Assembly (NCBI GenBank): GCA_026416845.1
Contig: JAOAEL010000001.1
Location: 117,940 to 181,939, forward strand
DNA: 64,000 nt
From: Patescibacteria group bacterium
GTDB lineage: Bacteria > Patescibacteriota > Microgenomatia > UBA8517
Direction: 5' to 3'
The notes under the pieces are model-generated. The model searched no databases and was not told where the DNA came from. It saw nothing but the letters and a program-made list of their open reading frames with translations. Position 1 is the first letter of the stretch. Every line of letters begins with the position of its first letter. A program made the translations under genes and the position numbers. This document shows positions 4,615 through 48,788 of the stretch, piece after piece.

Positions 4615-5744
4615 TTTTGGATCAAGTTGTACACTTTGAGAGTGTCAAGCGCTGTTTTCCCCCAAGAATATTTTTTGGATATTTTTAAGCCTTCTTTGAT
4701 CATATTTGAACGAAGCAATGAATTGCAAAGAACTTCAGAGAGCTTACTCACAAGATCATCCACGTCATGTGGATCAAAATAAACAGCTGACTTACCGGCA
4801 ACTTCCACAAGCGCTTGAGTTTTGGCGCAGACCACAGGAGTGCCAACCGACATAGCTTCTGCAACAGGCATTCCAAAACCTTCATAATAAGAAGGTTGAC
4901 AATAAACAGTCGCTAGATTGTATATGCAATTTAGCATTTTGTCCTCCACATATCCTAATCTATAAACATTTTTGCTTTTAGAAAATTCTTCAATAAGATT
5001 CTTCAAATGAGCAATCTCGGGATGGTAGGTATTAAAAACTCTACGCAAGTGATCTCTAAAACCTTTGATACTTCCATAAATCGCCTGCTTGTCAACTTCA
5101 GCCGCGGCTTTTCCGCATATAACAAGCGGCATATCAATTTTTTGGCAAGCTTTAACCAATGAAACTAAATTTTTGTTGTAATTAACATCGCCAACATATA
5201 AAACAAAACGCGCGGGCAAGTTTAATTTCTTTCTTATTTTAGGCAACTCTAATTTGGATATCTTTTTAATAAAAGATCTACAAGATAAATGGGTAACATG
5301 AACTTTTTGAGGATCAATATCTGTAAATCGTATAATATCCTTTTTCGTAGTTTCTGAATTTGCAATAATCGCTTTAGCTTTCTTTAGAATCTTTTTTTGA
5401 ATTTGCCAATTAATATTTCCTCTTATTCCTCCCGGATAATTCCTAGGGTATATCAAAGGAATCATATCATGAATAGTTACCACAGAATTTTCCGGAAGTC
5501 TAAAAGGCAGTGACCTTTCAAAAATACTAAACGCCGTAAAATGAACCACATCATAATCAGTGAAAATCAACCTCGAATTTCTTGAAAAATCAAAGGCATT
5601 GACATTTAAATTGTAAGCTTTCGATTGCAATTTTTTTAAGTTGTTTATCAGCTCTTTGGCATAAGTCCCAACACCTCTAACGCTATGTCCAGATAAAGTC
5701 GGTCCAGAATCAATTGCGACTCTCATAAGAAAAAAATCATTCAA
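4611..5744 (-). CDS. Glycosyltransferase family 4
   Basis: EGFGMPVAEAMSVGTPVVCAKTQALVEVAGKSAVYF is a GT4 signature. 4-nt overlap with its neighbours. Confidence 0.8.
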   Translation of the reverse strand: MNDFFLMRVAIDSGPTLSGHSVRGVGTYAKELINNLKKLQSKAYNLNVNAFDFSRNSRLIFTDYDVVHFTAFSIFERSLPFRLPENSVVTIHDMIPLIYPRNYPGGIRGNINWQIQKKILKKAKAIIANSETTKKDIIRFTDIDPQKVHVTHLSCRSFIKKISKLELPKIRKKLNLPARFVLYVGDVNYNKNLVSLVKACQKIDMPLVICGKAAAEVDKQAIYGSIKGFRDHLRRVFNTYHPEIAHLKNLIEEFSKSKNVYRLGYVEDKMLNCIYNLATVYCQPSYYEGFGMPVAEAMSVGTPVVCAKTQALVEVAGKSAVYFDPHDVDDLVSKLSEVLCNSLLRSNMIKEGLKISKKYSWGKTALDTLKVYNLIQK

Positions 5745-6652
5745 AATTTTTTCAACTCAAGATCCTTTTTCACTTCTGAATAATATTTAAAATACGCAAT
5801 GGGAAAATGCAAAGCTGAAAAGAAAGACCATATAAATCCTCTCATACCATCCCTAAACCCCAAATGTCTAAAATACAATTTCACAAAAAACAAAGTTGGC
5901 TTAACAAAAGAATAATATAACAAGTTCCACAAGCTGACACTAACATTTTGCGACTTAAATTTCATCGCAGTCAAATCTGTGTATCTGTTTGCGCGATACA
6001 AATACCTTTCAAAAGTTGGAGAATCATAATGCAAAAGGTCAAAATAACACCAACTTACCCTGCCATTTACCTTCATTTGTTCATGAACTGATTCTCCGGG
6101 CAAATAAGCCTTGCCTTTTTTAAACAATCTAATCACACCATCAGGATAGACACCAGCATAAGTAATAGGTTTACCTAAAAATATGTTTTTTCTTGGCAAA
6201 TAATAGGCAACAACCTCGCCATCAGAATCGCGTCTCCCGTCTCGTTTGTTAATATTTTCCTGATGTTGGTAAAACAAACGGTCTTTATATTTTTTCAACT
6301 TTGAATTAATGTGTTTTGCAATAAACTGATCATGTTTGCCATCCAAAATACTTTTAATCTCCCACGCCAACTCTTCAGAGACACACTCATCAGCGTCAAG
6401 TTGCAAAATCCAATCTCCACAAGCCTTTTTGTTTGCTTTTTCTTTGGTTATATGAAAGATAGGTTCATGATCAGTATCAAAAACTTTTGCGCCAAAAGAT
6501 TTTGCTATTTTAACTGTATCATCGTTGGAATGTTCATCGAAAATCACTATCTCATCAGCAATATCTTTGACAGAATTAAGGCATCTTGCAATATTTGCTT
6601 CCTCGTTTTTGGTAGCCAAAGTCACAGAGAGCTTAGTTTTTCTTTTTCCCAT
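5741..6652 (-). CDS. Glycosyltransferase family 2
   Basis: LSVTLATKNEEANIARCLNSVKDIADEIVIFDEHSNDDT ... LQLDADE (DxD-type) is a GT2-like N-terminus. Confidence 0.75.
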   Translation of the reverse strand: MGKRKTKLSVTLATKNEEANIARCLNSVKDIADEIVIFDEHSNDDTVKIAKSFGAKVFDTDHEPIFHITKEKANKKACGDWILQLDADECVSEELAWEIKSILDGKHDQFIAKHINSKLKKYKDRLFYQHQENINKRDGRRDSDGEVVAYYLPRKNIFLGKPITYAGVYPDGVIRLFKKGKAYLPGESVHEQMKVNGRVSWCYFDLLHYDSPTFERYLYRANRYTDLTAMKFKSQNVSVSLWNLLYYSFVKPTLFFVKLYFRHLGFRDGMRGFIWSFFSALHFPIAYFKYYSEVKKDLELKKF

Positions 6653-7928: not shown

Positions 7929-7955
7929 TTTAGATTCAGGTAAAAAAATAACTGC

Positions 7956-9650
7956 CTAATTTGCCACAACTAAAAAATACAAAAAATTGTTTGAACCATA
8001 AATTCTTTTTATTATGTTAGCTTCGGAAGGAATTTCCTTAGGACTGCCAATGATAATACTATCAGGATATTCTAAAGCAGTTTTATAAAAATCAATTGGT
8101 TCAAAGATAAAACGATCAAAAGCAGAAACAGTGGAAAACCCAAAATTATCTCTTGGAGTAAGATCGTGATTATTTTGAAAAACATATGGATCATACTTTA
8201 AGTAAAACAAAAATAAAATATAAGGCTGGTCGTAAAAATTTGTAATAACTATTTTTTTGTCTTTGTGATTTTCTCTTAAATAATCAACCAGTTCTTTTAC
8301 CCCATATTGAGAAGAATAAGGATATTCATAAGACATATGTTTATAATACATGTGCAAATAACGAAACAGGCTCCAACACAAAACACAAATCAGAAGCAAA
8401 CAACCAAAACCAAAGTAAATTTTGTTCTTATTCTCATAAATCCAATTGACTATTGAATAAAATCCTATAGAACTAATTATCGTTAAAGGCACAACCATAT
8501 TTTGTGCTCTTAAAGCATGAGGGGATTGAAATGTAAGTGCGGCCGCAAAAGGAGAAACGACAAGCCAACATAAAATAATCCCTAGATTTTTGTTACGAGA
8601 AAGACTAAAGATTGATTTGGCGTTAACTATTTGCAAAAGACCAATAATAATAAACAAAAGCTCAAATCCATACAACAAACCAGTCTCGGGAACCTTGTTT
8701 CTTTGTATATCATCTCCTGACAAAAACAAAAACTCTCCATGAAAATGATCAACATAATTTTGCAGAAAAGCCAAAAAATAATTCACATACTTATTGTGAA
8801 AACTCATTGCCCAAAAACTATTTGGGTGAAAATGTTCTCCTCTTTGTTCGTTAACTCTTGCTATTGGACCCGGATCAGCAAAGATTCCAACACCAGAAGC
8901 TCTGGAAATTCCGGCAGGACCAAAAAAATCAATTATTAAAGGAATCAGCAAAAACACTGACAAAGCAAAAGGAAATATCAGTTTTTTCCAATAAAGCATT
9001 AATATTTTTCTAAAAAAAATTGCCAAACCAAAAACCAAAAGAGGGACTATCACCCTTGAGGCATGATAGGTGTACAAAGACAAAACAAAACAAATGAGAG
9101 AAAATAACAAAAATTTAAATCTAAACAAGTTTGCGTCATTAAATTCTTTCTTCATGTAAACCAAGAAGAAGTAAACACCAAGAATAATAAAAAAAGTGGC
9201 GACATTGACTTCCCAAGCGCCACGCGAAAAATGAATATGCCAAGGAGAAATAGCAAGCAAAAAAGCGGACAGTTCTGGAAGCGAAAACTGAAAATTCAAA
9301 ATTGAAAATTTTCTGCAATTGGGAAATGATACATGAATCAACCAATACAAAATTATCACCGTGCCAACACCCGCCAAAGCTCCCGGAATTCTTACCGCCC
9401 ATTCATTTAACCCAAACAACCAAACAAATGGAATTGCCAAATACACATAAAAACCTGGTTTATAATCATTAAATGATTGAAAATGAATAGGAAATGGATT
9501 TGCGTGTTCGTCTTTGCCAGTTTTAATTAAAGAATAAGCGTTATAGCCAAGAGCCGCTTCATCCGCGTTCAACGCCGGATATCCACCTAGATTCCAAAAA
9601 CGCAATGTAAAAGCTATAAAAATTATCAAAAAAAATAAACTTTTTTTCAT
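7956..9650 (-). CDS. GT-C membrane glycosyltransferase, PMT/ArnT (GT39/GT83-like) family
   Basis: N-terminal loop NADEAALGYNAYSLIKTGKDEHANPFP carries the DE motif of ArnT/PMT-type enzymes. About 12 TM helices plus a C-terminal soluble domain. Paralogous to the four similar genes below. Confidence 0.75.
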   Translation of the reverse strand: MKKSLFFLIIFIAFTLRFWNLGGYPALNADEAALGYNAYSLIKTGKDEHANPFPIHFQSFNDYKPGFYVYLAIPFVWLFGLNEWAVRIPGALAGVGTVIILYWLIHVSFPNCRKFSILNFQFSLPELSAFLLAISPWHIHFSRGAWEVNVATFFIILGVYFFLVYMKKEFNDANLFRFKFLLFSLICFVLSLYTYHASRVIVPLLVFGLAIFFRKILMLYWKKLIFPFALSVFLLIPLIIDFFGPAGISRASGVGIFADPGPIARVNEQRGEHFHPNSFWAMSFHNKYVNYFLAFLQNYVDHFHGEFLFLSGDDIQRNKVPETGLLYGFELLFIIIGLLQIVNAKSIFSLSRNKNLGIILCWLVVSPFAAALTFQSPHALRAQNMVVPLTIISSIGFYSIVNWIYENKNKIYFGFGCLLLICVLCWSLFRYLHMYYKHMSYEYPYSSQYGVKELVDYLRENHKDKKIVITNFYDQPYILFLFYLKYDPYVFQNNHDLTPRDNFGFSTVSAFDRFIFEPIDFYKTALEYPDSIIIGSPKEIPSEANIIKRIYGSNNFLYFLVVAN

Positions 9651-9660
9651 CTTCTTATGC

Positions 9661-11388
9661 CTATTTAACTTTTACAACAGTAAACGCAATTGACCCATCA
9701 AGATTTTTTATCCTACTCACAAGTTCATATCCGCTCCATTTGTCAAAATCAGAAGGTATAGAGATCTCATTTCCAACTATTATTGACCCTTCTTCTGCAT
9801 GTTTAGGCCAACTAAAGTTTTCAAAATAAATACTGTCAATTGATTTAACCAATGAAACGTCATGTCTGTTTTCTTTATATCTTTCTAATTTTCTTGCTTG
9901 TAATTTACGAGGATCGTATTGGCTATAGAATAAATAGTAAATATAAGGTTGAGCATAAGATTGCTGAAATATAATCTTGTTCTCAGATTCAATATAAAGT
10001 TTTAATGATTGAACTACTTGTTTGTAACCAAATTGCCAATGCTTGGCATTATGAATTGGCTGATGGATAAAATACGCGTCAATAAAGTAAATAAAACTAA
10101 CTAAATAAGAAGTGAAAAGAAACCCAAATAAAGAGCTTCTTATCAACCAATTTTTAGATTTGTCCAAAAAATCAACAAAATAAATAAACCCAAAAGCGCA
10201 AATAATTGTCAAGGGTATTAACATATTCAAAGACCTCACTGCATGCACTTGATCGCGAGACAAAACCGCTGGCAATGGGGAAATAATCAACCAAGATACA
10301 ACAAACACGCTAAGTTTTAAACTGTTTATTTTAAATAAAGAATAAAAACCAAGAACAAGAAAAAGAACATCCGCAAAAAGCAAAACTCCATGATTGGGCG
10401 GTAAATGGCGCGGATTTTGCCAATCCCCTTCAAAAAACAAAAATCTCCCCGAGAAATGATTAAACCACCTTCCTAAAATGCCCCTTGCAAAATTCAGAGC
10501 TTCATTATGAAAAAGATAGTACTGCAAATCGCCTTTTTGCTCATTAGCTCTTTGCAAAAACTGATTAATGTATTCTTCAGATCTTGGGTAAGAAAAAACA
10601 CTAAAAACTTCCAATCTTCCAGCTTCGCCTGCCCTAAAACTTAACAAAACAGGAAAAATTACTATAAATGAAACAATAAAAGAAACCAAAAGATAGAAAA
10701 TCTTGCCTCTAAAATCCTTAAGCAACTCCTGATAAAAAACCAAAACAAGAACAAAAAATACAATCAATGAAGATAATTTCGCTCCTTGATATGTAAGCAA
10801 TGTCAAGGCAAACGCAAAAAATGAAAATATTAAACACTTGTAATTTTTTACACCTCTTATAAACATTAATATTCCAAACAACGTAATGGTCAAAGAAACA
10901 TTTGCTTCCCATCCTCCACGAGAAAAGGCGATGTGCCAAGGACTAACAGCCAATAAAAAACTTGCAACCAAAGGCGCAAAATAATAAATCTTAGACAATT
11001 TCTGATTTTTTTCCTGATTTTTAAGATTATCAAAAAATTCTTTTAATATTTTGTAAATCAAAAAAATCGCAAAAATGCCAGCAATAGCGCTAGGCAGACG
11101 CACACTTAACTCAGTCAAGCCAAGAAAAAAAACAAAAGGAATAACAAAATAAACATATAATGCAGGCTTGTAATCTCCAAAAGATTCAATGATTAGTGGC
11201 AAAAATTTTCCATGTTCATCTTTTCCGGTTTTCAAAATTGAATAAGCGTTATAGCCAAGAGCCGCTTCATCGGGGGTAAGCGAAGGAGGATTCGTGCTCA
11301 AATTATAAATTCTTAATAAACTTGCAATGAAAATAACTACAATTAAAACAAGTTTGTCAATTTTCTCAAATGAACAATTAATTTTCAT
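9661..11388 (-). CDS. GT-C membrane glycosyltransferase, PMT/ArnT-like (paralog 2); start taken at MKINCS...
   Basis: TPDEAALGYNAYSILKTGKDEHGKFLPL motif. 570-580 aa with many TM segments. Using the internal Met reduces the overlap with the upstream paralog to ~11 nt. Confidence 0.75.
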   Translation of the reverse strand: MKINCSFEKIDKLVLIVVIFIASLLRIYNLSTNPPSLTPDEAALGYNAYSILKTGKDEHGKFLPLIIESFGDYKPALYVYFVIPFVFFLGLTELSVRLPSAIAGIFAIFLIYKILKEFFDNLKNQEKNQKLSKIYYFAPLVASFLLAVSPWHIAFSRGGWEANVSLTITLFGILMFIRGVKNYKCLIFSFFAFALTLLTYQGAKLSSLIVFFVLVLVFYQELLKDFRGKIFYLLVSFIVSFIVIFPVLLSFRAGEAGRLEVFSVFSYPRSEEYINQFLQRANEQKGDLQYYLFHNEALNFARGILGRWFNHFSGRFLFFEGDWQNPRHLPPNHGVLLFADVLFLVLGFYSLFKINSLKLSVFVVSWLIISPLPAVLSRDQVHAVRSLNMLIPLTIICAFGFIYFVDFLDKSKNWLIRSSLFGFLFTSYLVSFIYFIDAYFIHQPIHNAKHWQFGYKQVVQSLKLYIESENKIIFQQSYAQPYIYYLFYSQYDPRKLQARKLERYKENRHDVSLVKSIDSIYFENFSWPKHAEEGSIIVGNEISIPSDFDKWSGYELVSRIKNLDGSIAFTVVKVK

Positions 11389-13087
11389 AAATTTCAAACG
11401 CAACCGAGCCATCTAAAAACTTTATTTGATCAATTTTATTCCAATTCACAGCGCCAATTTCATGAGAACTAAAAAGCAAACATTTAACTAAACTACAGTC
11501 TATTTCTTTCTTGCTTTCAGTTACAAAAATATTTGATTCAATTTTTTCATTTATTTGCCAGTCATTTACAAAAACAAATTTGTCAAAACCATCCACCCAC
11601 CACCAGTTTGATTGAAAAAACCTATTAAGATTTTGATCTTGAATATATTTGGCCGGGTCCCATTTCAAGTAAAACAAAACAAACATATGAGGCTCTCCGT
11701 ACTTTTTAGTAAAAACAATTCGATCGTAGTTGGAATAATTTCGCTTTACATAATCAAGCGCTTGTTTGTACCCATATTGCCAAGCTTGCGAATAACGCAA
11801 AGCATACTGGCTAAAATAATTTCTTAAATATTCTTCGGCAAATGTCCAAAAAGTGAGAATATAAAATACAACAAAAACAACTTTATATTTTTTAAACAAA
11901 ATTAATTTTTCTTTTAGAAAAAAGTAAGAACTGACTAATCCATAAGAAGTTATAATCATAGGCACTGGCAACATGGTAACGCTTCTTAACACATGAGGCG
12001 ATTCTCTGGTCAAGCTAGAAGCAAATGCGCCCGAAATAAGCCAGAATATAATTAAATATTTGTTTTTTAATTTTGAAAAAATCACAAAAACCAAACCTAA
12101 ATAGAAAAATACAATGTTTGCTTTATTTAATAAACCATACCCGGGAACGCTAAATTGATAATGAGATCCTCCGTTTGTAAAAAGATAAGAAACTTCAAAA
12201 TGAGATAGCAAATTCTGTGCGAATCGCCAAACTAAGTAAGTCCCCTTGTTGTACAAAATCCGATCAATAAAATCAGGGTATTCAGAAACTCTCCTTAATT
12301 CATTTATTTCATTTATCGCTCCTTCATCGATAATTGACACTTTCGAATACCTTGCTTGTCCAACTGGAGTAATTAATTGCACAAACATTGGAATAATCAT
12401 AAAAACTAATATTGCAACACTAATAAAAAATTTCGATTTTTCTGTCTTTGAAATATAAATCAAGTTCTTTCTGTAAATTAAAAACATAAATACCAAAATA
12501 GGGGGCACAAAAACCCTAGCTGAGTTATATGTCCAAGTTGACAAAGACAAAAAGAAAAAAGAGAAAGACAAGAATAAAGCATTTTGAAAAGATTTGAAAA
12601 AAAGTAAAATACCCAACACCACAAACGAAAATGCCAAATTAGCTTCAAAAGCTCCTCTGGAAATAAAAAACGTCCATGGCTCGATTGCGACAAAGAAAGT
12701 AGCCAAAATTGCTATAAATTCTTTATTTTTTTTATCCTTGAAAATCTCTTTAGACAAAAAGTAGGTAAATAAAACCGCAAGAGAACCAAACAAAATAGAA
12801 ACAAACCTCACTCCTAATTCATTAAGTCCAAAAACCGCGATTGAAGGCGCTGTAAAATATATATAAACAGGAAGTTTGTAATCTCCATAAGCTCTAAAAA
12901 TCAAAGGCATAAACTCTCCCCACTCGTCTTTAGCAGTTTTTAAAATCGAATAAGCATTATAACCATGCGAGATTTCGTCCCAATTGAGAGAAGGCGGAAT
13001 TTTTTCTATATTCCAAAAACGCAAAACAAAAGCAAAAATGAAAATGAAAAGAATTATTAATTTTGAATTTTTTAATAATTTACTCAT
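11378..13087 (-). CDS. GT-C membrane glycosyltransferase, PMT/ArnT-like (paralog 3)
   Basis: WDEISHGYNAYSILKTAKDEWGEFMPL motif, with the same architecture as its neighbours. Confidence 0.75.
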   Translation of the reverse strand: MSKLLKNSKLIILFIFIFAFVLRFWNIEKIPPSLNWDEISHGYNAYSILKTAKDEWGEFMPLIFRAYGDYKLPVYIYFTAPSIAVFGLNELGVRFVSILFGSLAVLFTYFLSKEIFKDKKNKEFIAILATFFVAIEPWTFFISRGAFEANLAFSFVVLGILLFFKSFQNALFLSFSFFFLSLSTWTYNSARVFVPPILVFMFLIYRKNLIYISKTEKSKFFISVAILVFMIIPMFVQLITPVGQARYSKVSIIDEGAINEINELRRVSEYPDFIDRILYNKGTYLVWRFAQNLLSHFEVSYLFTNGGSHYQFSVPGYGLLNKANIVFFYLGLVFVIFSKLKNKYLIIFWLISGAFASSLTRESPHVLRSVTMLPVPMIITSYGLVSSYFFLKEKLILFKKYKVVFVVFYILTFWTFAEEYLRNYFSQYALRYSQAWQYGYKQALDYVKRNYSNYDRIVFTKKYGEPHMFVLFYLKWDPAKYIQDQNLNRFFQSNWWWVDGFDKFVFVNDWQINEKIESNIFVTESKKEIDCSLVKCLLFSSHEIGAVNWNKIDQIKFLDGSVAFEIYEN

Positions 13088-14763
13088 AAAGTTCTAACAA
13101 TAAAAAATGCGATCTCGCCTGAGGGATAATTTATAGTTTCATAAGCTAAATTGACATTTGGCAACATTTCTTCAGGTAAAACAACCAAAATTTCCCCGTT
13201 TGACAATTCATTAAAATCAGAACTTTCTATTGCTTGAAAAGTGTATTTGCCAAGAGAGTATTTGTACATCTGATCCAAAAAAGTTAAGCCCTCTTCACGA
13301 TATCTAACCCAATCTTTAGCATTTTTTTGATATATCAAGGGATCGATTTTATTAACAAAAGCAAGATAAATATGAGGTTCAGATAATCTCCTACTAATTA
13401 CTACTTTATTAGCTGATATGCTTGAATTAAGATATTCAAATAATTCAATTCTCCCATATAACATAGCTTTTGCAACCAAATCATTTTGATTGCCCAAATA
13501 AGTCTGAATTGATAAACCCAACTGGTAAAAAACAAATAAAATTAAAATAAAAACAGAAAGATTAACTGCATATCTCAAATTATTAATTTTTTTAATCAAA
13601 GAAACAAAATAAGCAAATCCTAAAGCAGACGCTACATGAATGAAAGGCAACATTGTCGCCGCTCTGTTTGCCGCGTATCCAACTCCCATGGTCAACGCCG
13701 CTGGCAAAACAGCTATCAATAAAAAAATCAAAATAAAAATCAGCATTTTATTTTTTGACAAAATAGCAAAAAAAACAAAAAAAATTAAAGCAACCACTTC
13801 AATAAAATAAACAACTCCAATGCCTGGCACCATGCCATAAGTAGCTTCCCCCGGTCCTCTTGTAACCAAAAATTCTTTTGAAAAATATTTGATATAATTA
13901 TCTTTGAATCTACGCGCGACAACCAAGTATTTGTTGTTTGTAATTTTAGCCAAAGTAGGGTCTAATCCACTTTGTATAGCTTTGAGTCTTGCTTCGGCTT
14001 GCGCTTCCAAAGCTCCTCTAAAAATGCTTACATCCTGAGCTCTCTTTAATCCACCTTGGAAAAAAGTTGAAACAACCACTAAAAAAAATATCGCAAAAAC
14101 TGCCAACGAAACTATCAAATATTTAAGATTAACTTTTATAAGCTTTTTTAAAAAAAACATCACTAAAATTCCAACCACAATTGGTGTAACAAATCTAGCC
14201 GCATGATAAGTAAATAAATTAAGCCCAAAAACAAAAGCGCTCAATAACAAAAATTTATAATTTTCCAAACCCTTAAGAAACAAAAGTATTCCAAGAGGCA
14301 TAAAAAACGAAGTTAAATTTGCCTCAAAAGCGCCTCTTGATAGTTGAACGTGCCAAGGGGAAACAGCAAGTAAAAAAGAAGCTAAAAGTTCCACCTTAAA
14401 TTTATCTAAATTATGAGATTTCAAATAATTCATCCTAATATGTTTAATCAAAAAGTAAGTTACAAGAACCGCAAAAACTGAAAGCAAAGCATTAGGCAAT
14501 CTCACAACCCAAACCTCAAGACCAAAAAAAGCAACAAAAGGCACAAGCAAATATGCATAAAGTGGCGCTTTAAAATCTCCAAATGACTCCAAAACCAAAG
14601 GCAAAAATCTTCCCCACTGATCGCGCCCTGTGTGAAGTATTGAATATGCATCATAACCAAAAGAAGCTTCATCCGGAGTAAATCCATTTGGATATTGATG
14701 AATAAACAGAACTCGAAGCAAAACTGCCAATGACAAAATGGCTAACAAAATATATTTATCCAT
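13084..14763 (-). CDS. GT-C membrane glycosyltransferase, PMT/ArnT-like (paralog 4)
   Basis: TPDEASFGYDAYSILHTGRDQWGRFLPL motif. 4-nt overlap with paralog 3. Confidence 0.75.
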   Translation of the reverse strand: MDKYILLAILSLAVLLRVLFIHQYPNGFTPDEASFGYDAYSILHTGRDQWGRFLPLVLESFGDFKAPLYAYLLVPFVAFFGLEVWVVRLPNALLSVFAVLVTYFLIKHIRMNYLKSHNLDKFKVELLASFLLAVSPWHVQLSRGAFEANLTSFFMPLGILLFLKGLENYKFLLLSAFVFGLNLFTYHAARFVTPIVVGILVMFFLKKLIKVNLKYLIVSLAVFAIFFLVVVSTFFQGGLKRAQDVSIFRGALEAQAEARLKAIQSGLDPTLAKITNNKYLVVARRFKDNYIKYFSKEFLVTRGPGEATYGMVPGIGVVYFIEVVALIFFVFFAILSKNKMLIFILIFLLIAVLPAALTMGVGYAANRAATMLPFIHVASALGFAYFVSLIKKINNLRYAVNLSVFILILFVFYQLGLSIQTYLGNQNDLVAKAMLYGRIELFEYLNSSISANKVVISRRLSEPHIYLAFVNKIDPLIYQKNAKDWVRYREEGLTFLDQMYKYSLGKYTFQAIESSDFNELSNGEILVVLPEEMLPNVNLAYETINYPSGEIAFFIVRTL

Positions 14764-14770
14764 ATCTCAA

Positions 14771-16021
14771 TTATACCTTCTGCTTGGTAACCGATTTAAA
14801 AACAAAAACATACAAAAGAATATTCGCAAAACTTAAAATTAACTTGAAATGATAATTGCTAAGAACATTTTCCAAAAAAGGCAGTGAGGGCGACCAAAAC
14901 AAGTGATATAAATTCAAAAGATGAACAGCGGAAACCAAAAAATATAAAATCCAAATTTTAGGAATAAACGCCAATAAAAGGGTGGCATAAGGAAAAAATG
15001 GATAAAGATACCTTTCGTGAATTCTTGTCATGAACAAAAAAACGGTAAATGAAATTACCGCAAGAGCTGAAAATAATTTTTTATCTGAAAAGTCATTTTT
15101 TAATTTGTACATAAAATAAATTACTGCCCAAACAGGAATGACAAATCCCCAAATTCGCGCAGGCAAGCCGAAATAAGTTATAGAATCGAGTGTTTCCCCT
15201 GAATCAACTATCCACCAAAAATTAAAGGCGTTCGCGCTTAGATAACCTATTTCTCCCGGAATAAAACGCTGAGTGTAAATTCGCAAAAACCAGATGAAAA
15301 CATCAATCTTAGGATAAAACCAAACACAAGTTAGCAATACAACAAAAGCGCATACAAATAACGCTCTAAGCCAGTAGAATATTTTGTGCTTTTGAAAGAT
15401 CGCAACAATAAACAACACAGGAGCAAAATATAAAAGCGAACCTTTAAAAAGAACTGACAGGGTATAAAACAAAAACGCAATTGTTATTCTTTTTTGCAAT
15501 AAAGTAAATACCGATAAAATACCCAACAAATTGACAACAGAATCGGTCTGCCCCCACACCGAAGAGTTATACCAGATTACAGGATTTAATAACCAAACAA
15601 AACAAATTAATAAAGCTTTTCTTCGGCTAAAATTTTTAAAAATTAAATACTTATAAATAATTGCTCCAATTGCAATGTCCGCAATTATAGAGGGAAGTTT
15701 CATAAGTAAAACCATACCTTTGTCTTCCCAAAACCAAATAATAGTGGATGGAAAAAAACCAAAAGAATTGTTTAAATACCAAAAAGTATCTTTAAAAAAA
15801 TTCCATAAGAAAACCAAACCTCCAAGCATTAAAATAGTTAGAGGTGGCTGATTGGGGGCAGAGTATTGCCAACTATCTCTTTCGTAGAAATTCAAAATTC
15901 CGTTTTCATAAACTTCTATACCCCATGAAATTTGATTATTGAGATCACCATGGTATCCAATAAAAACAAATGATAACCTTAATATAAGAGAGAATAAAAA
16001 TATGACATGTAAAGGCTTCAT
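14771..16021 (-). CDS. Multi-pass membrane protein, probable GT-C glycosyltransferase (WGQ[TV]DS family; paralog of 16130-17359)
   Basis: 416 aa and highly hydrophobic. Shares NPVIWYNSSVWGQTDSVVNLLGI with the next gene (NSVIWGQVDSIVAFFLI). Confidence 0.45.
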   Translation of the reverse strand: MKPLHVIFLFSLILRLSFVFIGYHGDLNNQISWGIEVYENGILNFYERDSWQYSAPNQPPLTILMLGGLVFLWNFFKDTFWYLNNSFGFFPSTIIWFWEDKGMVLLMKLPSIIADIAIGAIIYKYLIFKNFSRRKALLICFVWLLNPVIWYNSSVWGQTDSVVNLLGILSVFTLLQKRITIAFLFYTLSVLFKGSLLYFAPVLFIVAIFQKHKIFYWLRALFVCAFVVLLTCVWFYPKIDVFIWFLRIYTQRFIPGEIGYLSANAFNFWWIVDSGETLDSITYFGLPARIWGFVIPVWAVIYFMYKLKNDFSDKKLFSALAVISFTVFLFMTRIHERYLYPFFPYATLLLAFIPKIWILYFLVSAVHLLNLYHLFWSPSLPFLENVLSNYHFKLILSFANILLYVFVFKSVTKQKV

Positions 16022-16129
16022 GTAAAAACTTTGATTAAAAAAACTATTAATTTATTTTGTCTCCGACAATAAAATAGTTAAAATTCGCATATATAAAAAT
16101 TTGACAATATTTTTCTTTAATCTCAAACC

Positions 16130-17359
16130 TTATTTGTTAAATCGAATTAAAAACTTAAAAACCAAAAAATAGTTTATTATGTTTAAAATAGACAAAGCAA
16201 AAACCATCATGTTGACCCAAGAGTTATTGGCATACGAAGCAAATTTATATGAATAAATCAAATTAACAAAATAAATCAGAAATAAAATATAAACACTAAA
16301 TCTTTTTAGTCCTTTAATAAAAGGTGTTGCCAAAAGAAGCAACACAAAACCATAGTAAGGATGTCTCTCATGCATTCTAGTCATAAACATTGGCAAAGCC
16401 AAAAAGATTATAGATCCATAAAAAATTAACATTCTATGCGCATCGAATATCCCAATATTGTTTTTAAACAAGAGGATATATCTAATGAATGCAAATGAAT
16501 ATACAAAAATAAAAAGTAGCAAGCCAATATTGTGATATGTCATACCCCAAATCTGCTCTTTATCTGAGACATAATTGAAACCGCCATGAAAGACATTTGT
16601 AATCACAAGCCAAAAATTAAACATGTTTAAAGTTGTATATTGCCAAAAATTAGCTGTATACAAGTTTCTCTCAATCACAAAATCAATAAAGTTCCCCTTC
16701 GCAAACGGCACAAAAGTAAGCAAAAACATTAATGCGAATGTCAAAAGAAAAACAAAAACTTTATTAAATCCATACCTTCGCAGTAAATAGTAAGCGAAAA
16801 AAGGCAAGATCAAGATAATTACTGGTTTTATTGATTGTCCCAAACCCAAAAAAATTCCTGAAAGCAAATATTTTTTACACAAAAACAAATAAATTGCACT
16901 AATCAAAAAGAAAGCAACTATGCTGTCAACTTGCCCCCAAATTACAGAATTCATCAAAAATCCGGGATAAAACGCATAAAAAGCTGAAACCATAAAAGCT
17001 TTTGCTCTATCAACCAATTTGCTTGAGATTAAATATATCAAAACACTGTTTGCTATATCGGTAAAAAACGATGGCAATTTATAAACAAACTCCAAATCAA
17101 TATAAAAAAGTTTGGTGTTAATAAAATAGTACAACTTGCCAATAAACCAAAGCGCATACAAGTAACCGGGAAGATAATCAGAATTCTCAATATCGTAAAA
17201 ATAACTCCACTTGTGCCTTATTAAAGACAAAGACCATTCACTAAATGTAAATATATCGGGATGAGAGTTGGAAAAAAATAGAAAGGGAATTCTAATCACA
17301 AAAGAAATTATAAAGACAAAAAAGATGCATGTTTTATCAGTTGTTAAAAACCTATTCAT
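16130..17359 (-). CDS. Multi-pass membrane protein, probable GT-C glycosyltransferase (WGQ[TV]DS family)
   Basis: 409 aa. Shares the WGQxDS motif and an R(M/I)HERY/HPY motif near the C-terminus with the preceding paralog. Confidence 0.45.
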   Translation of the reverse strand: MNRFLTTDKTCIFFVFIISFVIRIPFLFFSNSHPDIFTFSEWSLSLIRHKWSYFYDIENSDYLPGYLYALWFIGKLYYFINTKLFYIDLEFVYKLPSFFTDIANSVLIYLISSKLVDRAKAFMVSAFYAFYPGFLMNSVIWGQVDSIVAFFLISAIYLFLCKKYLLSGIFLGLGQSIKPVIILILPFFAYYLLRRYGFNKVFVFLLTFALMFLLTFVPFAKGNFIDFVIERNLYTANFWQYTTLNMFNFWLVITNVFHGGFNYVSDKEQIWGMTYHNIGLLLFIFVYSFAFIRYILLFKNNIGIFDAHRMLIFYGSIIFLALPMFMTRMHERHPYYGFVLLLLATPFIKGLKRFSVYILFLIYFVNLIYSYKFASYANNSWVNMMVFALSILNIINYFLVFKFLIRFNK

Positions 17360-19068
17360 TCTTTCGCAAACAAATAAAAAGCGGGTTCTCCTGATGGATA
17401 AGCTATTGCGTCAAGCAAAACAAGATCACCAGGAGTCCTTTCTGGTTCTTGTATTAAATTCACTTTTACTTCTTTTTCTGTTGCCAAATAAATGCTTTTA
17501 GATGGCAACACTTTCCCCCAATCATAAAGACCGGCATTTTGAGGACTTCCAAAATAGTATCTGTCAATAAAACCAACTTCACCAAATCCAGTTATATCAG
17601 CTTTTTTAAATGGATAACCTTTATGCCACCAGAAAGGATCATAAGGATACAAAGCGGCAAAAAATATCCAAGCAGGTTCACCATACATGCTAATAATTAT
17701 CTTGTCATAATTTTTTTCATAGTTTTTAAGTGAAGTAATAGCTTCTCTAAAACCATAATGCCACCACCTCTCTGAATCATATTTGTTATGTACCCAATAA
17801 TAATGACTGTAAAAAATAAAATTTGCCAAAAAAATTACAAAATAAGAACCAGTTAAAAAAATCTTTAATTTGAAATTCTGAATTGAAAACAGATAGTAAA
17901 TACCAAATGAAATTAGAAACACCAAAGGAACTAAAATAGTAATAAGACGAGTGGCATGATTCCCTCCATCACGAGTAAGCGAAGCTGGCAAAGCGCCAAA
18001 AATTAGCATAAAAACAATAAAATATTTATGCCTCTTAGTAATATTTTTAGAAGCAAAGAAAAACACAATACCAAAAATCAACAAAATAAAATCTACTTGA
18101 TAAAACTGACCCATTTGTTTTATAGAATGCCTCAAATTGGGATCGCCAGATATAAAAAGAAATTCTGTAGAGAATGACTTTAATAAATTATCAAAAATCA
18201 AAGAAATCCATAAAAAAAACTTATTATGATAAAACTTATCAGCAAAAGAAGGTTGCAATCCTTCTACCAATTCATTTCTGTCGTAAGCATCCAACATTCT
18301 AGCGGTACCAATTTCTGACTCTTTTGTCGGGTCTGTGAAAATACTTATGTAAGAAAATCTCTGTGTTCCACCACCAAAAAATGTTGAATAAAATGTTGGC
18401 AAACCTAAAAATATCAGGAAAATTAACGCGCTGAAAATTTCTTTTTTTGAAAATTTAAAAATTTCCCTAAACCAGAATAAAAAGAGAAAAAACATAAGAA
18501 AAGGAGTAAAAAATTTAGCAGTGCTGTAAATGAGAGGAGTTAAAGTAAGCAAAGAAACAGAAAGCCAAAAAAATTTGCCACCATTTCTGACCGAATAAAA
18601 GAAAAAATACAATCCAAAAACAAGAAAAAAAAGCAACATTGTAACTTCAAAACCAGCTCGTGAGTACTGAATATGCCATGGAGACAAGGCAAGAACAAAA
18701 GCGACAATCAAACCAAAATAATCTTTGTTAAATACTTGTTTTGCGAGAAGATAAATCCCTAAAATAGTTAGAATCCCAAAAATTGCGGCTGGCAATCTCA
18801 CTCCATAAGGGCTAATTCCAAATATAGCCACTGTTGGAACTGATGCATACAAATAAAGAGGCGTCCTCCATTCTGCCAGAGACTGAAAATGAAGTGGCAT
18901 AAAATTTCCTGAGTAATCTTTGCCTGTTTTCAAGATCGAATAAGCGTGATACCCCACATCCAATTCATCTCCAAACATAGAAACAGGCACTTCATCTAAT
19001 TTCCAAAGTCTTAAAAATGAAGCAATAAACAAAATAAAAAACAAAAATATTTTTTTCCTATTAAACAT
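17356..19068 (-). CDS. GT-C membrane glycosyltransferase, PMT/ArnT-like (paralog 5)
   Basis: FGDELDVGYHAYSILKTGKDYSGNFMPL motif. 570 aa. Confidence 0.75.
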   Translation of the reverse strand: MFNRKKIFLFFILFIASFLRLWKLDEVPVSMFGDELDVGYHAYSILKTGKDYSGNFMPLHFQSLAEWRTPLYLYASVPTVAIFGISPYGVRLPAAIFGILTILGIYLLAKQVFNKDYFGLIVAFVLALSPWHIQYSRAGFEVTMLLFFLVFGLYFFFYSVRNGGKFFWLSVSLLTLTPLIYSTAKFFTPFLMFFLFLFWFREIFKFSKKEIFSALIFLIFLGLPTFYSTFFGGGTQRFSYISIFTDPTKESEIGTARMLDAYDRNELVEGLQPSFADKFYHNKFFLWISLIFDNLLKSFSTEFLFISGDPNLRHSIKQMGQFYQVDFILLIFGIVFFFASKNITKRHKYFIVFMLIFGALPASLTRDGGNHATRLITILVPLVFLISFGIYYLFSIQNFKLKIFLTGSYFVIFLANFIFYSHYYWVHNKYDSERWWHYGFREAITSLKNYEKNYDKIIISMYGEPAWIFFAALYPYDPFWWHKGYPFKKADITGFGEVGFIDRYYFGSPQNAGLYDWGKVLPSKSIYLATEKEVKVNLIQEPERTPGDLVLLDAIAYPSGEPAFYLFAKE

Positions 19069-19874: not shown

Positions 19875-20771
19875 TCAACTAAACATTGCCAAAACTGCCT
19901 CATCTGATAACTTAATGTGTTTTTTTTCTTTTCTTCTAAAACTCGCAATTAAACCAATTTTTGTAAGCGCCATAATAACTACAACAATATATCCTGGATG
20001 CAACAAAGACCTATTGATTAAACCAAAAATATGCTTTTTCATCAGACTTTTCGAAGTAATATTCTTCCACATAAAAATAAGATGATTCCTTTCTTGAATC
20101 CTCATTTTAAATTTTTTATCAATGGCTCTTGTTGTGCCTTCGTGAATATGTGAAACAATAGCTTTTGGTTCCCACAAACATTTATAACCTCTCTTCCAAG
20201 CGCGATAGCTCAAATCAACATCTTCCCAGTAAAAAGGACTAAACAGATTAGCATCCATACCTGAAAGTTTTAGATAATAACTTCTTCTAAAAACACCAGA
20301 ACCTCCGCTAACCCACATAGTTTTTGTGGTTTCTTTCAATTCATCCAAACCTTTGTGAACAAAATAACCATTTTCAAAACTCCCAATAGCAGGCCCGTAA
20401 CCTCTTTCATGAAAAGATACACCAAAAACGGAAATATCTTCAAAATGTTTCAAGGTTGGAAATACAAAATTTTCGCTCACACTAACATCATTGTTAAGCA
20501 AGACAACCAGACTGCAACGTGAATTTTTAACTCCAGTATTAACAGCAAAAGAAAAACCGCGATTCTTTGAATGACGAAAAATTTTCACTTGCGGATATTT
20601 TTCTTTAATGTATGCGACACTATCATCAGTTGAACAGTCATCTACAACAATTATCTCCTTAATCATATTTAAATTATTTTTGCTAGCTTTTATCACTGAA
20701 GGCAAATGCTTTTTTAACAAATGCTTACCATTATAGTTAGGGATAATAACTGATACCGAGTTTTTATTCAT
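19875..20771 (-). CDS. Glycosyltransferase family 2
   Basis: VSVIIPNYNGKHLLKKHLPSV...VVDDCSTDDS...LLNNDV is a GT2 signature. Confidence 0.75.
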   Translation of the reverse strand: MNKNSVSVIIPNYNGKHLLKKHLPSVIKASKNNLNMIKEIIVVDDCSTDDSVAYIKEKYPQVKIFRHSKNRGFSFAVNTGVKNSRCSLVVLLNNDVSVSENFVFPTLKHFEDISVFGVSFHERGYGPAIGSFENGYFVHKGLDELKETTKTMWVSGGSGVFRRSYYLKLSGMDANLFSPFYWEDVDLSYRAWKRGYKCLWEPKAIVSHIHEGTTRAIDKKFKMRIQERNHLIFMWKNITSKSLMKKHIFGLINRSLLHPGYIVVVIMALTKIGLIASFRRKEKKHIKLSDEAVLAMFS

Positions 20772-23119
20772 TTTTCTTTGCGATAATTGCTATAAATTGT
20801 AAAAAAAGATAAAAACAAAAAAGTGGCAAGACTAATCCAGAGAGAATAATAAAATGTTTTTGGCTTATAAAACATCTCTATTTTATTTGTGCCAGCATTC
20901 ACATAAAAAGACTGAAAAATTAGATTTGCTTTAAATATTTTAGCCGGCAAACCGTTAACATATAATTTCCAACTGTCATCATAGCTAACCGAGTGAAAAA
21001 CATACGAATCTATTGAAGTTTCAATTTCAAAAGATATTTTGTTCTTACCAAGCAAATAATTTGTAACTTTATATTCAGGCTCTTCATTTGATGAAACTAC
21101 CAACTTTTCCTCTAAAAATATATATTTACCTTTTGTTGTTAGCATTTTTTGTATTAATTCTTTTTGATCACTTACAAAAAACACCTGATTAGACAACCAA
21201 ACTCTAGGCAAATAGAAAAGGTATTCATACACAGATATTCTCCCTTCATCAAAAACTTTTTTATAATTTTCAATGTTATTGCCGTTGTACAAATAACCAT
21301 TAACATCAATTCCACCCAGTCTATTTTTGGGATAATCAATAATATACTTCAGATTTGAATATGCCAAAAGCGGGGAAGAAAAATTATGCACCAATCCATA
21401 ACGTCCACTCAACGCAGATAAGTCCCCCTTGTTTACAACAGAATACCATTTGCTATTAATTTCTGGATAAATTGAATCATAACCTTCTACCGACTGAATA
21501 CGAAAAGGCATGAAGAGATTTAAAGGAATTCCTCCCGCAATTCTAAATTGCTCTTTTTCTGAGTGTTGTTTTAAAAAAGAAATTATCCTAGTTTCAGGAA
21601 AAACAAACTCTCTTTGAGAAAAAGGCGTATTTTTGTTTGCATACCAAACCATTTCAAATGTTAACAAAAATAAAAGTATATATCTTGCGTAATTCAATTT
21701 ATTAAATCTCTTGGCTGTATAAATTACAAAAACCATAAAAATCAGTACCAACGTAGCAGGAATCATATTTTTTAGAGAAACCTGCATTTTATTTTGATCA
21801 TTAGGGAAGAGATTAATACCATAGACTGAAATATATGGAGTAAAATAAATGAAAATTCCAATCCCTGCAGTAATCAACAACAAAACCAAACAAATTTTTA
21901 ATATTAAATTCGAACTGCCTTTTACTTCATCAAATCTCAATGCCGATAAAGTAGCAGCAAAAAAACCAACAACAAATAGTATTCTGCTTGCGGAGCTTGT
22001 GCCTAATCCCGGGATATTCAAAATGTACGGCAGATATGCCAAGGGTGTGGGGAAAAGCATTATTAAAGAAAACAAAATACCAATTTTAAAATATTTTTCA
22101 GATCTTGTTTTGCTTCTTTTAATAAAACCAAAAATTAAAAACACAAGAGCTGTAACACCAAAAAAAGCCATATATTCATGAAAACCAAATTTGCCCCAAT
22201 AATTTCCGGTGACAACGTTTCCATAAAAATCCGGCCATATAAAGTTTGTGATTTTGTGCCAATGCATAATTCCATAAAAATACTCAACAATATAAGGGTC
22301 GTCGCGACGTATTGAACTTAAATACAATTCCAAAGTTGGCAAAAGTTGTGGCAAAGATAAAAATACACCGAAAATTTGTCCAAGTATCGCCTTGATGAGA
22401 ATCTTGATCTTCTCATGAAACAAATAAAAAGCGTAAGTAAAATAAATGACAGTTATGTATAACGGCACTTGAAAATCACCAGCAGTGTAAACAAAGAAAA
22501 AACCTATTGAGATTAAAAATATGTACAAGAAGTTTTGTCTATTTGAATATTTATGCAAGCACCAAAGCAAAAAAGGCAACCATAAACCAGCGTGGCCACC
22601 AGTTGCAAATTCCAACCAAGCAATCATATAACCACTGTAAGAAAAAGCAATTGCCCCAAATAAAGATGCCAACTGTGATAAATTTAATTTCTTTAAAAAC
22701 AAATATGTAAAAACACCCGACAATAAAACTTGTGAATATACAAGCAAGCTCCAAGCATCAATATCATTTAAAAAAAGGTAAAAAACATTAAGAGGATAAA
22801 GCACAGCCGAATGTAGTGTTGCCAAAAATGGACTTCCAGAAAACATATAATGATTCCATAAAGGGACAGATCCGTTTCTCCAAAATTCTCCCACAAGTTG
22901 CCTCCAAGGATAGAATTGAGAAAAAGCATCGGTTTTCTCCAAATTTTTTATTGGGATACCAGTTGGATAATCATCCCAAGATATTTCCGTCCAAGGGATA
23001 TGCGCCCCAACCAAAGCATCGACAGGCAATGGAACTTTACCATTCAAAAAGTAAGGGTGAAAAAATATTGCTGAGATTAAAAATATATAAAAAAAACAAA
23101 GCCAATTTGAAAACTTCAT
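20768..23119 (-). CDS. Large polytopic membrane protein, YfhO-like (GT-C type glycosyltransferase candidate)
   Basis: 783 aa. N-terminal FFHPYFLNGKVPLPVDALVGAHIPW and overall TM-rich organisation with a C-terminal soluble domain resemble the YfhO family. Family call is tentative. Confidence 0.5.
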   Translation of the reverse strand: MKFSNWLCFFYIFLISAIFFHPYFLNGKVPLPVDALVGAHIPWTEISWDDYPTGIPIKNLEKTDAFSQFYPWRQLVGEFWRNGSVPLWNHYMFSGSPFLATLHSAVLYPLNVFYLFLNDIDAWSLLVYSQVLLSGVFTYLFLKKLNLSQLASLFGAIAFSYSGYMIAWLEFATGGHAGLWLPFLLWCLHKYSNRQNFLYIFLISIGFFFVYTAGDFQVPLYITVIYFTYAFYLFHEKIKILIKAILGQIFGVFLSLPQLLPTLELYLSSIRRDDPYIVEYFYGIMHWHKITNFIWPDFYGNVVTGNYWGKFGFHEYMAFFGVTALVFLIFGFIKRSKTRSEKYFKIGILFSLIMLFPTPLAYLPYILNIPGLGTSSASRILFVVGFFAATLSALRFDEVKGSSNLILKICLVLLLITAGIGIFIYFTPYISVYGINLFPNDQNKMQVSLKNMIPATLVLIFMVFVIYTAKRFNKLNYARYILLFLLTFEMVWYANKNTPFSQREFVFPETRIISFLKQHSEKEQFRIAGGIPLNLFMPFRIQSVEGYDSIYPEINSKWYSVVNKGDLSALSGRYGLVHNFSSPLLAYSNLKYIIDYPKNRLGGIDVNGYLYNGNNIENYKKVFDEGRISVYEYLFYLPRVWLSNQVFFVSDQKELIQKMLTTKGKYIFLEEKLVVSSNEEPEYKVTNYLLGKNKISFEIETSIDSYVFHSVSYDDSWKLYVNGLPAKIFKANLIFQSFYVNAGTNKIEMFYKPKTFYYSLWISLATFLFLSFFTIYSNYRKEK

Positions 23120-33452: not shown

Positions 33453-33454
33453 CG

Positions 33455-34213
33455 CTAAATTTTGTATTTTCCCATAATTGAATTAAGTCTAACCTTTATA
33501 AGGTCAAAAAGCCCATCAATGGAATCTTTAATTGGATTTACCCTAACAGTGCCTTTATGGTGCCATTTAACAGGAACTTCTCTGACTTGAAGAGAAAGTT
33601 TCCTTGCAATGTACAAAAGCTCTAAATCAAACCCAGCTTTGACTGCTGAACCTTTTATTTGTTGATTATTACGAAACACTTTCATTTTTTTGAAAATTAC
33701 ACGGGCAGCATTTTTCTTAAAAGCTTTAAAACCACATTGCGTGTCTTTGTAAGGCAATCTAAGAATCAAATACCTTAAGATAGAAAATCCTGCCGCCATG
33801 GCACGACGCACTAAAGGAGCTCCTTCTCTACCAGAACGAGAACCAATTACTATATCTACATTATTATCAAATTCAGGCAAAATCTTTTCCAACTGGTCTA
33901 TCGGAGTTGCTTGATCCATATCGGTAAATAAAATAATTTCACCTTTGGCTTTTAACATCCCGGCAATAACAGTTGCCGCTTTGCCTCTATGTGGTTCGTT
34001 ATACAAGTAAAAATTTTTGTGTCTTTTAACAAAGTCTAAAACCATTTTTGAAGTATCATCTGTGCTTCCATCGTTAACAACCAAAACTTCCCAAGAATAA
34101 TTTTGTTTCTTTAAATAATTGTAAACCTCATCAAGAACCTTGTTTCTTAGATTAGAAACTTCATTATAAGCCGGTATCACAACAGATAAAAACACTTTAT
34201 TCTTCTTTTTCAT
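33455..34213 (-). CDS. GT2 polyprenol-phosphate sugar transferase (DPM1/ArnC/GtrB-like)
   Basis: LSVVIPAYNEVSNLRNKVL...VVNDGSTDDT...FTDMDQA, 252 aa. It sits immediately downstream of an ArnT-like GT-C gene, a classic lipid-linked sugar donor/user pair. Confidence 0.75.
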   Translation of the reverse strand: MKKKNKVFLSVVIPAYNEVSNLRNKVLDEVYNYLKKQNYSWEVLVVNDGSTDDTSKMVLDFVKRHKNFYLYNEPHRGKAATVIAGMLKAKGEIILFTDMDQATPIDQLEKILPEFDNNVDIVIGSRSGREGAPLVRRAMAAGFSILRYLILRLPYKDTQCGFKAFKKNAARVIFKKMKVFRNNQQIKGSAVKAGFDLELLYIARKLSLQVREVPVKWHHKGTVRVNPIKDSIDGLFDLIKVRLNSIMGKYKI

Positions 34214-34230
34214 AAACTTTTTTTAACTAT

Positions 34231-37261: not shown

Positions 37262-37263
37262 TC

Positions 37264-37851: not shown

Positions 37852-37853
37852 AT

Positions 37854-40132: not shown

Positions 40133-40213
40133 TTTATGTCAAAGTCTAACATAAATTTAGAGAGAATAACCATAACTTGTAAAATTGCTAAATTTGAGTA
40201 TATCATCTGATGG

Positions 40214-41374: not shown

Positions 41375-41386
41375 ATTTTTTATTCT

Positions 41387-48263: not shown

Positions 48264-48265
48264 AT

Positions 48266-48787: not shown

Positions 48788-48788
48788 G

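Follow-up and report, generated by a model that had tools for sequence, protein, structure and literature searches.

Five predicted GT-C glycosyltransferase paralogs in an order-conserved gene block of a Patescibacteria genome

The general frame for the genes described here is that of the multi-component transmembrane glycosylation systems (PMC8035078; PMC11127046). In the Gram-positive systems CsbB/GtcA/YfhO, GtlA/GtlB, CsdAB/CD/EF and GacI/K/L, three types of component are found: a GT-A polyprenyl-phosphate-sugar synthase, a flippase of GtrA or Wzx type and a GT-C protein of PMT_2 or YfhO type (PMC8035078); one GT-C is paired with one GT-A. We report here on a gene array, A1 to A5, that lies in a 64,000-nucleotide (nt) stretch of DNA from a Patescibacteria group bacterium (GenBank assembly GCA_026416845.1, contig JAOAEL010000001.1, positions 117,940-181,939 of the forward strand; hereafter “the window”) and encodes five paralogous, predicted GT-C-fold glycosyltransferases (GTs). 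The locus around the array holds the same three component types as the Gram-positive systems, but here five paralogous GT-C genes stand with GT87-like genes in one block with no interleaved synthase. ArnT (GT83; PDB 5ezm/5f15), the undecaprenyl-phosphate-L-Ara4N:lipid A transferase, differs further: it is a single gene, whereas there are five ordered paralogs here, and its identity to A1-A5 is 11-12%, with no significant sequence match. Pfam and NCBIfam scans of the window's open reading frames (ORFs) found no arnA, arnB, arnD, arnE or arnF context, only ArnC-like GT2 enzymes and a deacetylase-family ORF (46435-47277). Lipid A is in any case an improbable acceptor in a Patescibacteria genome.

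Homology, fold and candidate active site of the five paralogs

The five genes had been picked out in an initial annotation made from the DNA sequence alone, and the ORF list places them at exactly the positions given there, all on the minus strand (Table 1). A1-A5 can be aligned with one another over their full length, and BLASTP gives pairwise identities of 29-35% with E values from 6e-53 to 8e-88. Because the similarity extends from end to end at these values, it reflects common descent rather than composition: A1-A5 are genuine paralogs of a membrane glycosyltransferase of PMT/ArnT-like (GT-C) kind, as had been supposed, and an N-terminal resemblance by composition only, which would have undone that claim, is excluded. 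At the level of motifs, what A1-A5 have in common is a core, DE-x3-GY-x-AYS-x3-T-x-[KR]-D, which in A1 is encoded at about 9510-9563. The longer pattern of the initial annotation fared less well, since one residue after AYS(L/I) had been dropped from it: in its literal form it fits none of the five, and once repaired it fits only A2 and A4 fully. Mean identity between the paralogs is 45% in the first loop, 34% in transmembrane helices (TM) 2-7, 28% in the long outer loop and 26% in both TM8-11 and the C-terminal soluble domain; only the first loop is thus conserved above the rest of the protein. The C-terminal domains, which had been singled out as divergent, have indeed diverged, but they are homologous in all five and no less alike than TM8-11 or the outer loop. 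The divergence runs along the whole protein and is not concentrated in the C-terminal domain. Fold comparison assigned no known carbohydrate-binding fold to this alpha/beta domain and found no strong structural neighbour for it. The five paralogs may have diversified in acceptor specificity, as was suggested.

The proteins have the features of the GT-C superfamily (GT-C_A class), namely a multi-pass architecture with the conserved GT-C transmembrane module and an acidic motif of DxD/DE type in the first extracytoplasmic loop. A1 was modelled with AlphaFold2 from a 60-sequence alignment, and the model reached a predicted local distance difference test (pLDDT) score of 91.1 and a predicted template-modelling (pTM) score of 0.92. 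Foldseek with this model returned ArnT first (E 4e-7), followed by AglB, Pmt4, PglB and STT3, and in structure comparison the fold of the A family is equidistant from ArnT, PMT, oligosaccharyltransferase (OST) and ALG12. As modelled, then, A1-A5 are glycosyltransferases of GT-C(A) fold, about equally distant from GT83, GT39, GT66 and GT22, and the names “GT39 family” and “ArnT-like” that databases attach to them are nominal. The Pfam matches are borderline. Against gathering thresholds of 26.1 bits for PMT_2 (PF13231), 22.7 bits for PMT (PF02366) and 25 bits for GT87 (PF09594), A3 and A5 pass for PMT_2, A4 (23.9 bits) and A2 (19.8 bits) fall below and A1 has no match; PF02366 (GT39/PMT) matches A1 (22.2 bits) and A5 (16.7 bits), both under the cutoff, and none of A2-A4. 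Precomputed matches to both PF13231 and PF02366 are present on many orthologs. Membership in Agl23 was considered and rejected, with NCBIfam scores of 25-36 bits against a cutoff of 126. The family itself is large: 5,705 representatives (at 50% identity) were found at E<=1e-30 and 21,709 at E<=1e-3.

From the helices of the A1 model together with hydropathy, we infer a topology with the N-terminus inside and about 11 transmembrane helices, in which the first loop (residues 19-82), the long loop (243-329) and the C-terminal alpha/beta domain of about 120 amino acids (aa) lie outside. The pair D30-E31 comes 11 residues past TM1, and the motif of the initial annotation would correspond to the first outer loop, the catalytic loop of the family that carries the DE pair. 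In characterized enzymes, an acidic pair of the first outer loop forms the active site (ArnT D55/E56, Pmt1 D77/E78, EmbA D281/D282), and its substitution abolishes activity (PMC7801869). By its position and motif, D30-E31 may be the counterpart of the catalytic/acceptor-binding Asp-Glu of ArnT and Pmt1; by eye, E. coli ArnT shows the same pattern, with “QPDETRYAEI...” followed by “WLFGANNFGVR.” When conservation of the DE motif was computed over 241 sequences in the five ortholog clades described below, D30, E31, Y195 and R381 were conserved at 100%, and D47, R87 and R250 at 94% or more, in every clade. For this reason all five enzymes seem to be active and kept by purifying selection. The invariant R87, Y195, R250 and R381 would be candidates for binding the phosphate or the donor.

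Age of the duplications and copy number

The block reads, in one direction and densely packed, A5, two GT87-like genes, A4, A3, A2 and A1, followed by a GT2 and a GT4 gene. A4 and A3 overlap by 4 nt, the start of A2 and the end of A3 by 35 nt, and at the A4/A3, A3/A2 and A2/A1 junctions there is an overlap or a gap of at most 10 nt both in the window and on three related contigs with syntenic arrays (L001-L003). In a promoter/terminator scan, promoter-like sites were rarer than in shuffled sequence and terminator-like sites stayed within about 1.3 standard deviations of the shuffles. A1 matches N2558_00570 at 100% identity; this protein comes from a metagenome-assembled genome (MAG) named “Patescibacteria group bacterium,” and the other relatives of A1 belong to Woesebacteria and Microgenomates.

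When one genome of each GTDB species was scanned, 80 loci were obtained, belonging to Woese-, Ames-, Blackburn-, Davies-, Collier- and Shapirobacteria, all of which NCBI lineages put in the Microgenomates group. The family members in these loci were classified, and a neighbour-joining tree of 259 sequences shows five clades; every clade includes a single window paralog and has roughly one member from each locus, and the transfer bootstrap (TBE) values are 0.87-0.996 (Table 1). Classical bootstrap, which demands exact membership, gives low values (1-18%), since a few additional, divergent copies change position from tree to tree, and we judge transfer bootstrap to be the fairer measure. Fourteen loci have the full order A5-A4-A3-A2-A1, and 50 of 54 have the suffix A3-A2-A1; they belong to Woese-, Ames-, Blackburn-, Collier- and Shapirobacteria. 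The positional orthologs on L001-L003 are 44-64% identical to the window paralogs, as against 29-35% between paralogs; over Woese-, Ames-, Collier- and Shapirobacteria the range for positional orthologs is 40-64%. The initial annotation had read the array as a serial duplication; since every paralog belongs to a separate ortholog clade that extends over the Microgenomates group, with the gene order kept, this duplication was not lineage-specific. The tree and the synteny place the duplications as ancient, older than the radiation of these lineages. A search of the papers available for this analysis found no description of this array or of GT-C expansions in the candidate phyla radiation (CPR), and a five-paralog block whose order is conserved class-wide is a comparative-genomics observation worth recording.

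Some loci carry further copies. On L001 (JGI contig Ga0672955_0000043), the closest non-identical relative of the window, a sixth family member of 557 aa lies directly after A1 on the strand opposite to the array (11692-13365, minus strand in that locus), and there is one GT87-like gene and not two. In several other loci, extra divergent copies stand upstream of the array. Arrays A5-A1 of Microgenomates type, 40-56% identical to the window, also occur in many MAG records titled “uncultured Gammaproteobacteria/Pseudomonadales bacterium” (L007, L009-L011, L013, L022-L024 and others); these titles look like placeholder or wrong taxonomy.

At the DNA level the paralogs are far apart. Codon-aligned nucleotide identity between them is 47-51%, and third positions, at 38-43%, are saturated in a genome of 32% GC. 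In blastn, similarity between the paralog genes is confined to patches of at most 230 nt (64-76% identity), and the top repeat family, with 62-79% identity, is the 81-nt segment that encodes the motif. The longest exact match shared by any two paralog genes is a 32-nt run in A1 (9519-9550) and A2 (11227-11258), GATGAAGCGGCTCTTGGCTATAACGCTTATTC, which encodes DEAALGYNAYS and is probably due to constraint at the codon level, or at most to gene conversion over a tiny tract. A 35-nt “match” of A2 and A3 is only their physical overlap. Copy number is confirmed independently by a second MAG, isolate SKYG105, whose contig JANWVB010000015.1 aligns without gaps to window positions 6662-19650 in a single stretch of 12,989 nt at 98.9% identity and carries the same genes, whose products are 97-100% identical in amino-acid sequence. 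Recombination between the paralogs or collapse in assembly, raised earlier as a hazard, is therefore not a realistic concern with copies so diverged and a colinear second MAG at 1.1% divergence.

Proposed donor supply and assembly scheme, and alternatives

The array sits in a locus of about 42 kb rich in glycosyltransferases, with four GT4 and about ten GT2 genes, in which synthase, flippase and GT-C are encoded together and in the same direction. The presence of DPMS-like and GtrB/ArnC-like synthases in this locus (Table 1) suggests that A1-A5 use a sugar donor linked to polyprenyl phosphate. We propose the following scheme. The DPMS-/GtrB-like GT2 synthases would load sugars onto polyprenyl phosphate in the cytoplasm, and GtrA-like or Wzx-like proteins would flip the donors and probably also a lipid-linked primer supplied by the GT4/GT2 enzymes. 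A1-A5 and the GT87-like enzymes could then transfer sugars from polyprenyl-phosphate-sugar on the external side of the cytoplasmic membrane; D30 would serve in catalysis or activate the acceptor, and the phosphate would be held by the invariant arginines. The five non-redundant enzymes would work in successive steps, possibly as hetero-oligomers, on one conserved cell-envelope glycan.

We give this explanation as a whole, extracytoplasmic and lipid-donor-dependent glycosylation by five ancient GT-C paralogs, a probability of roughly 0.5. Its parts differ in strength. We hold with high confidence that the genes encode paralogous GT-C glycosyltransferases and that their array is ancient and conserved. 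Stepwise action of the five on a single glycan comes somewhat short of even odds; it is favoured because all five paralogs remain non-redundant and keep one order and their coupling in lineages listed by NCBI taxonomy as separate candidate phyla. More tentatively still, the block A5-(GT87-like)-A4-A3-A2-A1-GT2-GT4 could be the core of an undescribed extracytoplasmic glycan assembly line across the Microgenomates group, in which the five paralogs, possibly as hetero-oligomers, would add successive residues to a lineage-defining envelope polymer, as a bacterial counterpart of the endoplasmic reticulum (ER)-lumenal ALG series or of mycobacterial Emb/Aft/Mpt.

Several points weigh against the favoured explanation. 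Sequence searches of the PDB with a profile of the five paralogs, with a 60-sequence profile and with A5 alone returned no match even at E<=10, and for that reason the family link to solved GT-C enzymes is drawn by fold comparison. Comparison with E. coli ArnT by hhalign gave E 0.11 over 36 columns, a single TM2 segment, which is not significant; local N-terminal pairwise alignments with ArnT were mostly noise (z 0.1-2.4), apart from A3 (z 8.0). Since neither the profile nor the pairwise alignments are significant, we treat the equivalence of D30/E31 with the ArnT pair as positional. The scanned loci were chosen as the best matches of A1, so that the sample leans toward arrays containing A1 and passes over arrays that lack it. 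A4 and A5 are missing from some loci, and therefore not all five steps are obligatory. No GtrB-like synthase stands directly beside A1-A5: those genes adjoin other PMT_2 genes 15-25 kb away, the nearby GT2 genes (5741, 19061, 19875) have no specific assignment as polyprenyl-phosphate-sugar synthases, and a dedicated GT-A partner for each GT-C is not seen for A1-A5. Finally, the conserved order would fit five independent, merely co-regulated decorations equally well.

This last possibility leads to the alternative that survives best, although we consider it rather unlikely: each paralog would be the GT-C of a separate three-component system, with a different sugar or acceptor polymer and no stepwise dependence. 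Gram-positive bacteria do carry several unlinked GT-A/GT-C pairs that decorate lipoteichoic acid, wall teichoic acid and rhamnan independently (PMC8035078). The presence in the window of at least three polyprenyl-phosphate-sugar synthases, the low identity between paralogs in the outer loop and C-terminal domain (26-28%) and the dispensability of A4 and A5 in some lineages would also agree with separate systems. However, such systems are normally made of GT-A/GT-C pairs scattered in the genome, whereas here the five GT-C genes form one fixed-order block, with overlaps resembling those of translational coupling and no synthase interleaved.

Unlikely, to a somewhat greater degree, is a role in protein O-glycosylation, in which each of these bacterial PMT/GT39-like enzymes would modify, in the course of export, its own set of secreted or surface proteins (S-layer, pilins, fibres). 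A cluster at 52497-60810 encodes proteins that may form fibres or lie on the cell surface and are conceivable as glycosylation targets; it comprises a CAP-domain protein, two camelysin/TasA-like proteins (Peptidase_M73), a fusion of an S24-type peptidase with a lamin tail, an RTX-repeat protein and a sortase. Compared with the GT39 PMTs (yeast Pmt1/2/4; M. tuberculosis Rv1002c), A1-A5 stay below the PF02366 threshold, and a Pfam scan found no PMT_4TMC or MIR domain in any of them; their C-terminal alpha/beta domain is different, and the fold is no closer to PMT than to ALG12, ArnT or OST. The gene context, moreover, is of polysaccharide type, being dominated by GT2, GT4, Wzx, rmlABCD and deacetylase genes.

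It is very improbable that only one or two of the paralogs are catalytic and the others non-catalytic scaffold or regulatory subunits of a hetero-oligomer. The tight operon packing does suggest stoichiometric co-expression, and paired GT-C assemblies have been solved (Pmt1-Pmt2, 6p25; EmbA-EmbB, 7bvf), but the residues listed above are retained in every clade and there is no pseudo-enzyme relaxation. A recent duplication or an assembly artefact with a lower true copy number can practically be dismissed, as nothing beyond the tandem arrangement itself was found in its favour and the nucleotide divergence, the gap-free SKYG105 contig and the recurrence of the five-gene order in dozens of other genomes all stand against it.

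Neighbouring genes and comparison with known systems

The main genes are collected in Table 1. Between A5 and A4 lie two multi-pass membrane proteins with WGQxDS motifs, which the initial annotation had called unrelated to the array. This is not plainly so: 16130-17359 passes the GT87 threshold, and 14771-16021, which has no GT87 match of its own, resembles it (E 2e-13) and matches ALG6_ALG8 weakly (E 0.024). The two are probably GT-C enzymes of another class. Of 51 long related loci, 20 have a GT87-like homolog of 14771-16021 within the array or next to it, and no close homolog of 16130-17359 was found in other loci at E<=1e-15. Downstream of the array, the homolog of the GT2 gene at 5741-6652 follows A1 in all three mapped loci, L001, L002 and L003.

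Table 1. Features of the array and its locus (window coordinates)
Feature	Coordinates	Strand	Description and evidence
A1	7956..9650	minus	564 aa; GT-C fold glycosyltransferase paralog; DE motif = D30-E31; clade TBE 0.99
A2	9661..11412	minus	583 aa; paralog by ORF, alignment and BLASTP; ortholog clade TBE 0.97
A3	11378..13087	minus	569 aa; paralog; Pfam PMT_2 29.2 bits (above threshold); clade TBE 0.995
A4	13084..14763	minus	559 aa; paralog; clade TBE 0.87
A5	17356..19068	minus	570 aa; paralog; PMT_2 35.9 bits, highest among the five; clade TBE 0.996
GT87-like multi-pass membrane protein a	14771..16021	minus	416 aa; WGQTDS; 26% identical to b; weak ALG6_ALG8 match
GT87-like multi-pass membrane protein b	16130..17359	minus	409 aa; WGQVDS; Pfam GT87 30.9 bits
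GT2 glycosyltransferase	5741..6652	minus	Pfam scan; homolog in 51/51 long related loci
GT4 glycosyltransferase	4611..5744	minus	Homolog in 50/51 long related loci
YfhO-family GT-C protein, upstream of array	20768..23119	minus	Pfam YfhO E 1e-19; also upstream in L001
Candidate donor synthase: polyprenyl-phosphate mannose synthase-like GT2 with GtrA/DPMS transmembrane domain	41387..42583	minus	Pyrococcus DPMS 5mlz, full-length, E 5e-36; Pfam GT2 and GtrA_DPMS_TM
Candidate donor synthase: GtrB/ArnC/DPMS-like GT2	39413..40132	minus	Matches to 5ekp and 9bhc, E ~1e-16
Candidate donor synthase: GtrB/DPMS-like GT2 (closest GtrB, ArnC, DPMS)	33455..34213	minus	Matches to 5ekp and 5mlz, E ~1e-13
MOP/Wzx-type flippase	28575..30065	minus	Pfam Polysacc_synt_3 E 5e-50; NCBIfam MOP flippase E 4e-41
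Second MOP/Wzx-type flippase	2191-3477		Pfam/NCBIfam scan

From 201 to 40132, nearly all genes share the minus strand, and the gaps or overlaps between them are tiny; GC content in the window is 30-41%, and GC skew is persistently negative on the plus strand. Strand bias and skew would fit a single replichore with one very long run of genes read in the same direction. Five further PMT_2 proteins without the A-family motif (starting at 31902, 34231, 35729, 37854 and 40214) belong to a second GT-C cluster at 31902-42583, the first four on the minus strand and the last, a shorter one (40214-41374, 386 aa), on the plus strand. They are interleaved with the GtrB-like GT2 genes at 33455 and 39413 and followed by the DPMS-like synthase at 41387; this cluster resembles the classical GT-A/GT-C pairs, and the first loop of its PMT_2 proteins retains DE/DQ. 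An odd passenger, the gene for a DEDDh/RNase T-type 3'-5' exonuclease (37264-37851, 195 aa), lies between two of the PMT_2 genes. The Wzx-type flippase at 28575 is flanked by two multi-pass proteins, 26870-28573 (567 aa) and 30081-31895 (604 aa), which have no significant Pfam or NCBIfam match and are candidates for a polymerase, a ligase or a novel GT-C. Directly downstream of A1 is a gene for a flavin adenine dinucleotide-dependent flavoprotein of amine-oxidase/phytoene-desaturase type (6633-7928; NCBIfam PRK07233, 401 bits). It was considered as a DprE1/UGM-like modifier of the lipid-linked donor and set aside, as it occurs in only 2 of 51 long loci and is thus a local addition outside the conserved module. 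The ORF at 3478-4614 (378 aa) has no family match and a homolog in 30 of 51 related loci. Adjoining the glycosylation locus are a complete dTDP-L-rhamnose pathway (rmlD, rmlC, rmlB, rmlA; 47385-50513) and the polysaccharide deacetylase-family ORF already mentioned, which suggests a rhamnose-containing polymer.

Microgenomates are uncultivated, ultra-small bacteria thought to depend on contact with other cells, and to our knowledge the cell-envelope glycans of these CPR/Patescibacteria have not been characterized experimentally. Five non-redundant GT-C enzymes, with their order kept across lineages that NCBI names as separate candidate phyla, point to a conserved and complex surface glycan built outside the membrane. 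If this is true, the polymer could matter for the episymbiotic lifestyle of ultra-small bacteria, and the array would offer a defined gene set for heterologous reconstitution, glycan-directed probes and use as a lineage marker. For annotation, the GT39 and ArnT-like labels of this family are nominal, and its copies here are too diverged to pose a hazard for assembly or recombination.

Among known systems, the closest organizational precedent for the A1-A5 block is the mycobacterial embC-embA-embB array (GT53). The two differ in GT family, in protein length (about 560 aa for A1-A5, about 1,090 aa for Emb), in the number of paralogs (five versus three), in the Emb-type C-terminal carbohydrate-binding module, which A1-A5 lack, and in the host, here Microgenomates. 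For successive steps on one glycan, the mycobacterial Mpt/Aft/PimE/Emb series of GT-C enzymes provides an analogy. The ER-lumenal ALG3/ALG9/ALG12/ALG6/ALG8/ALG10 series is a functional analogy only, with no sequence-level relationship and no evidence that A1-A5 belong to it, and no OST was identified in the window. The biochemistry, a GT-C transfer of ArnT, PMT or ALG type, is the expected part of this system, and its interest lies in the organization of the genes and in the glycan they would make.

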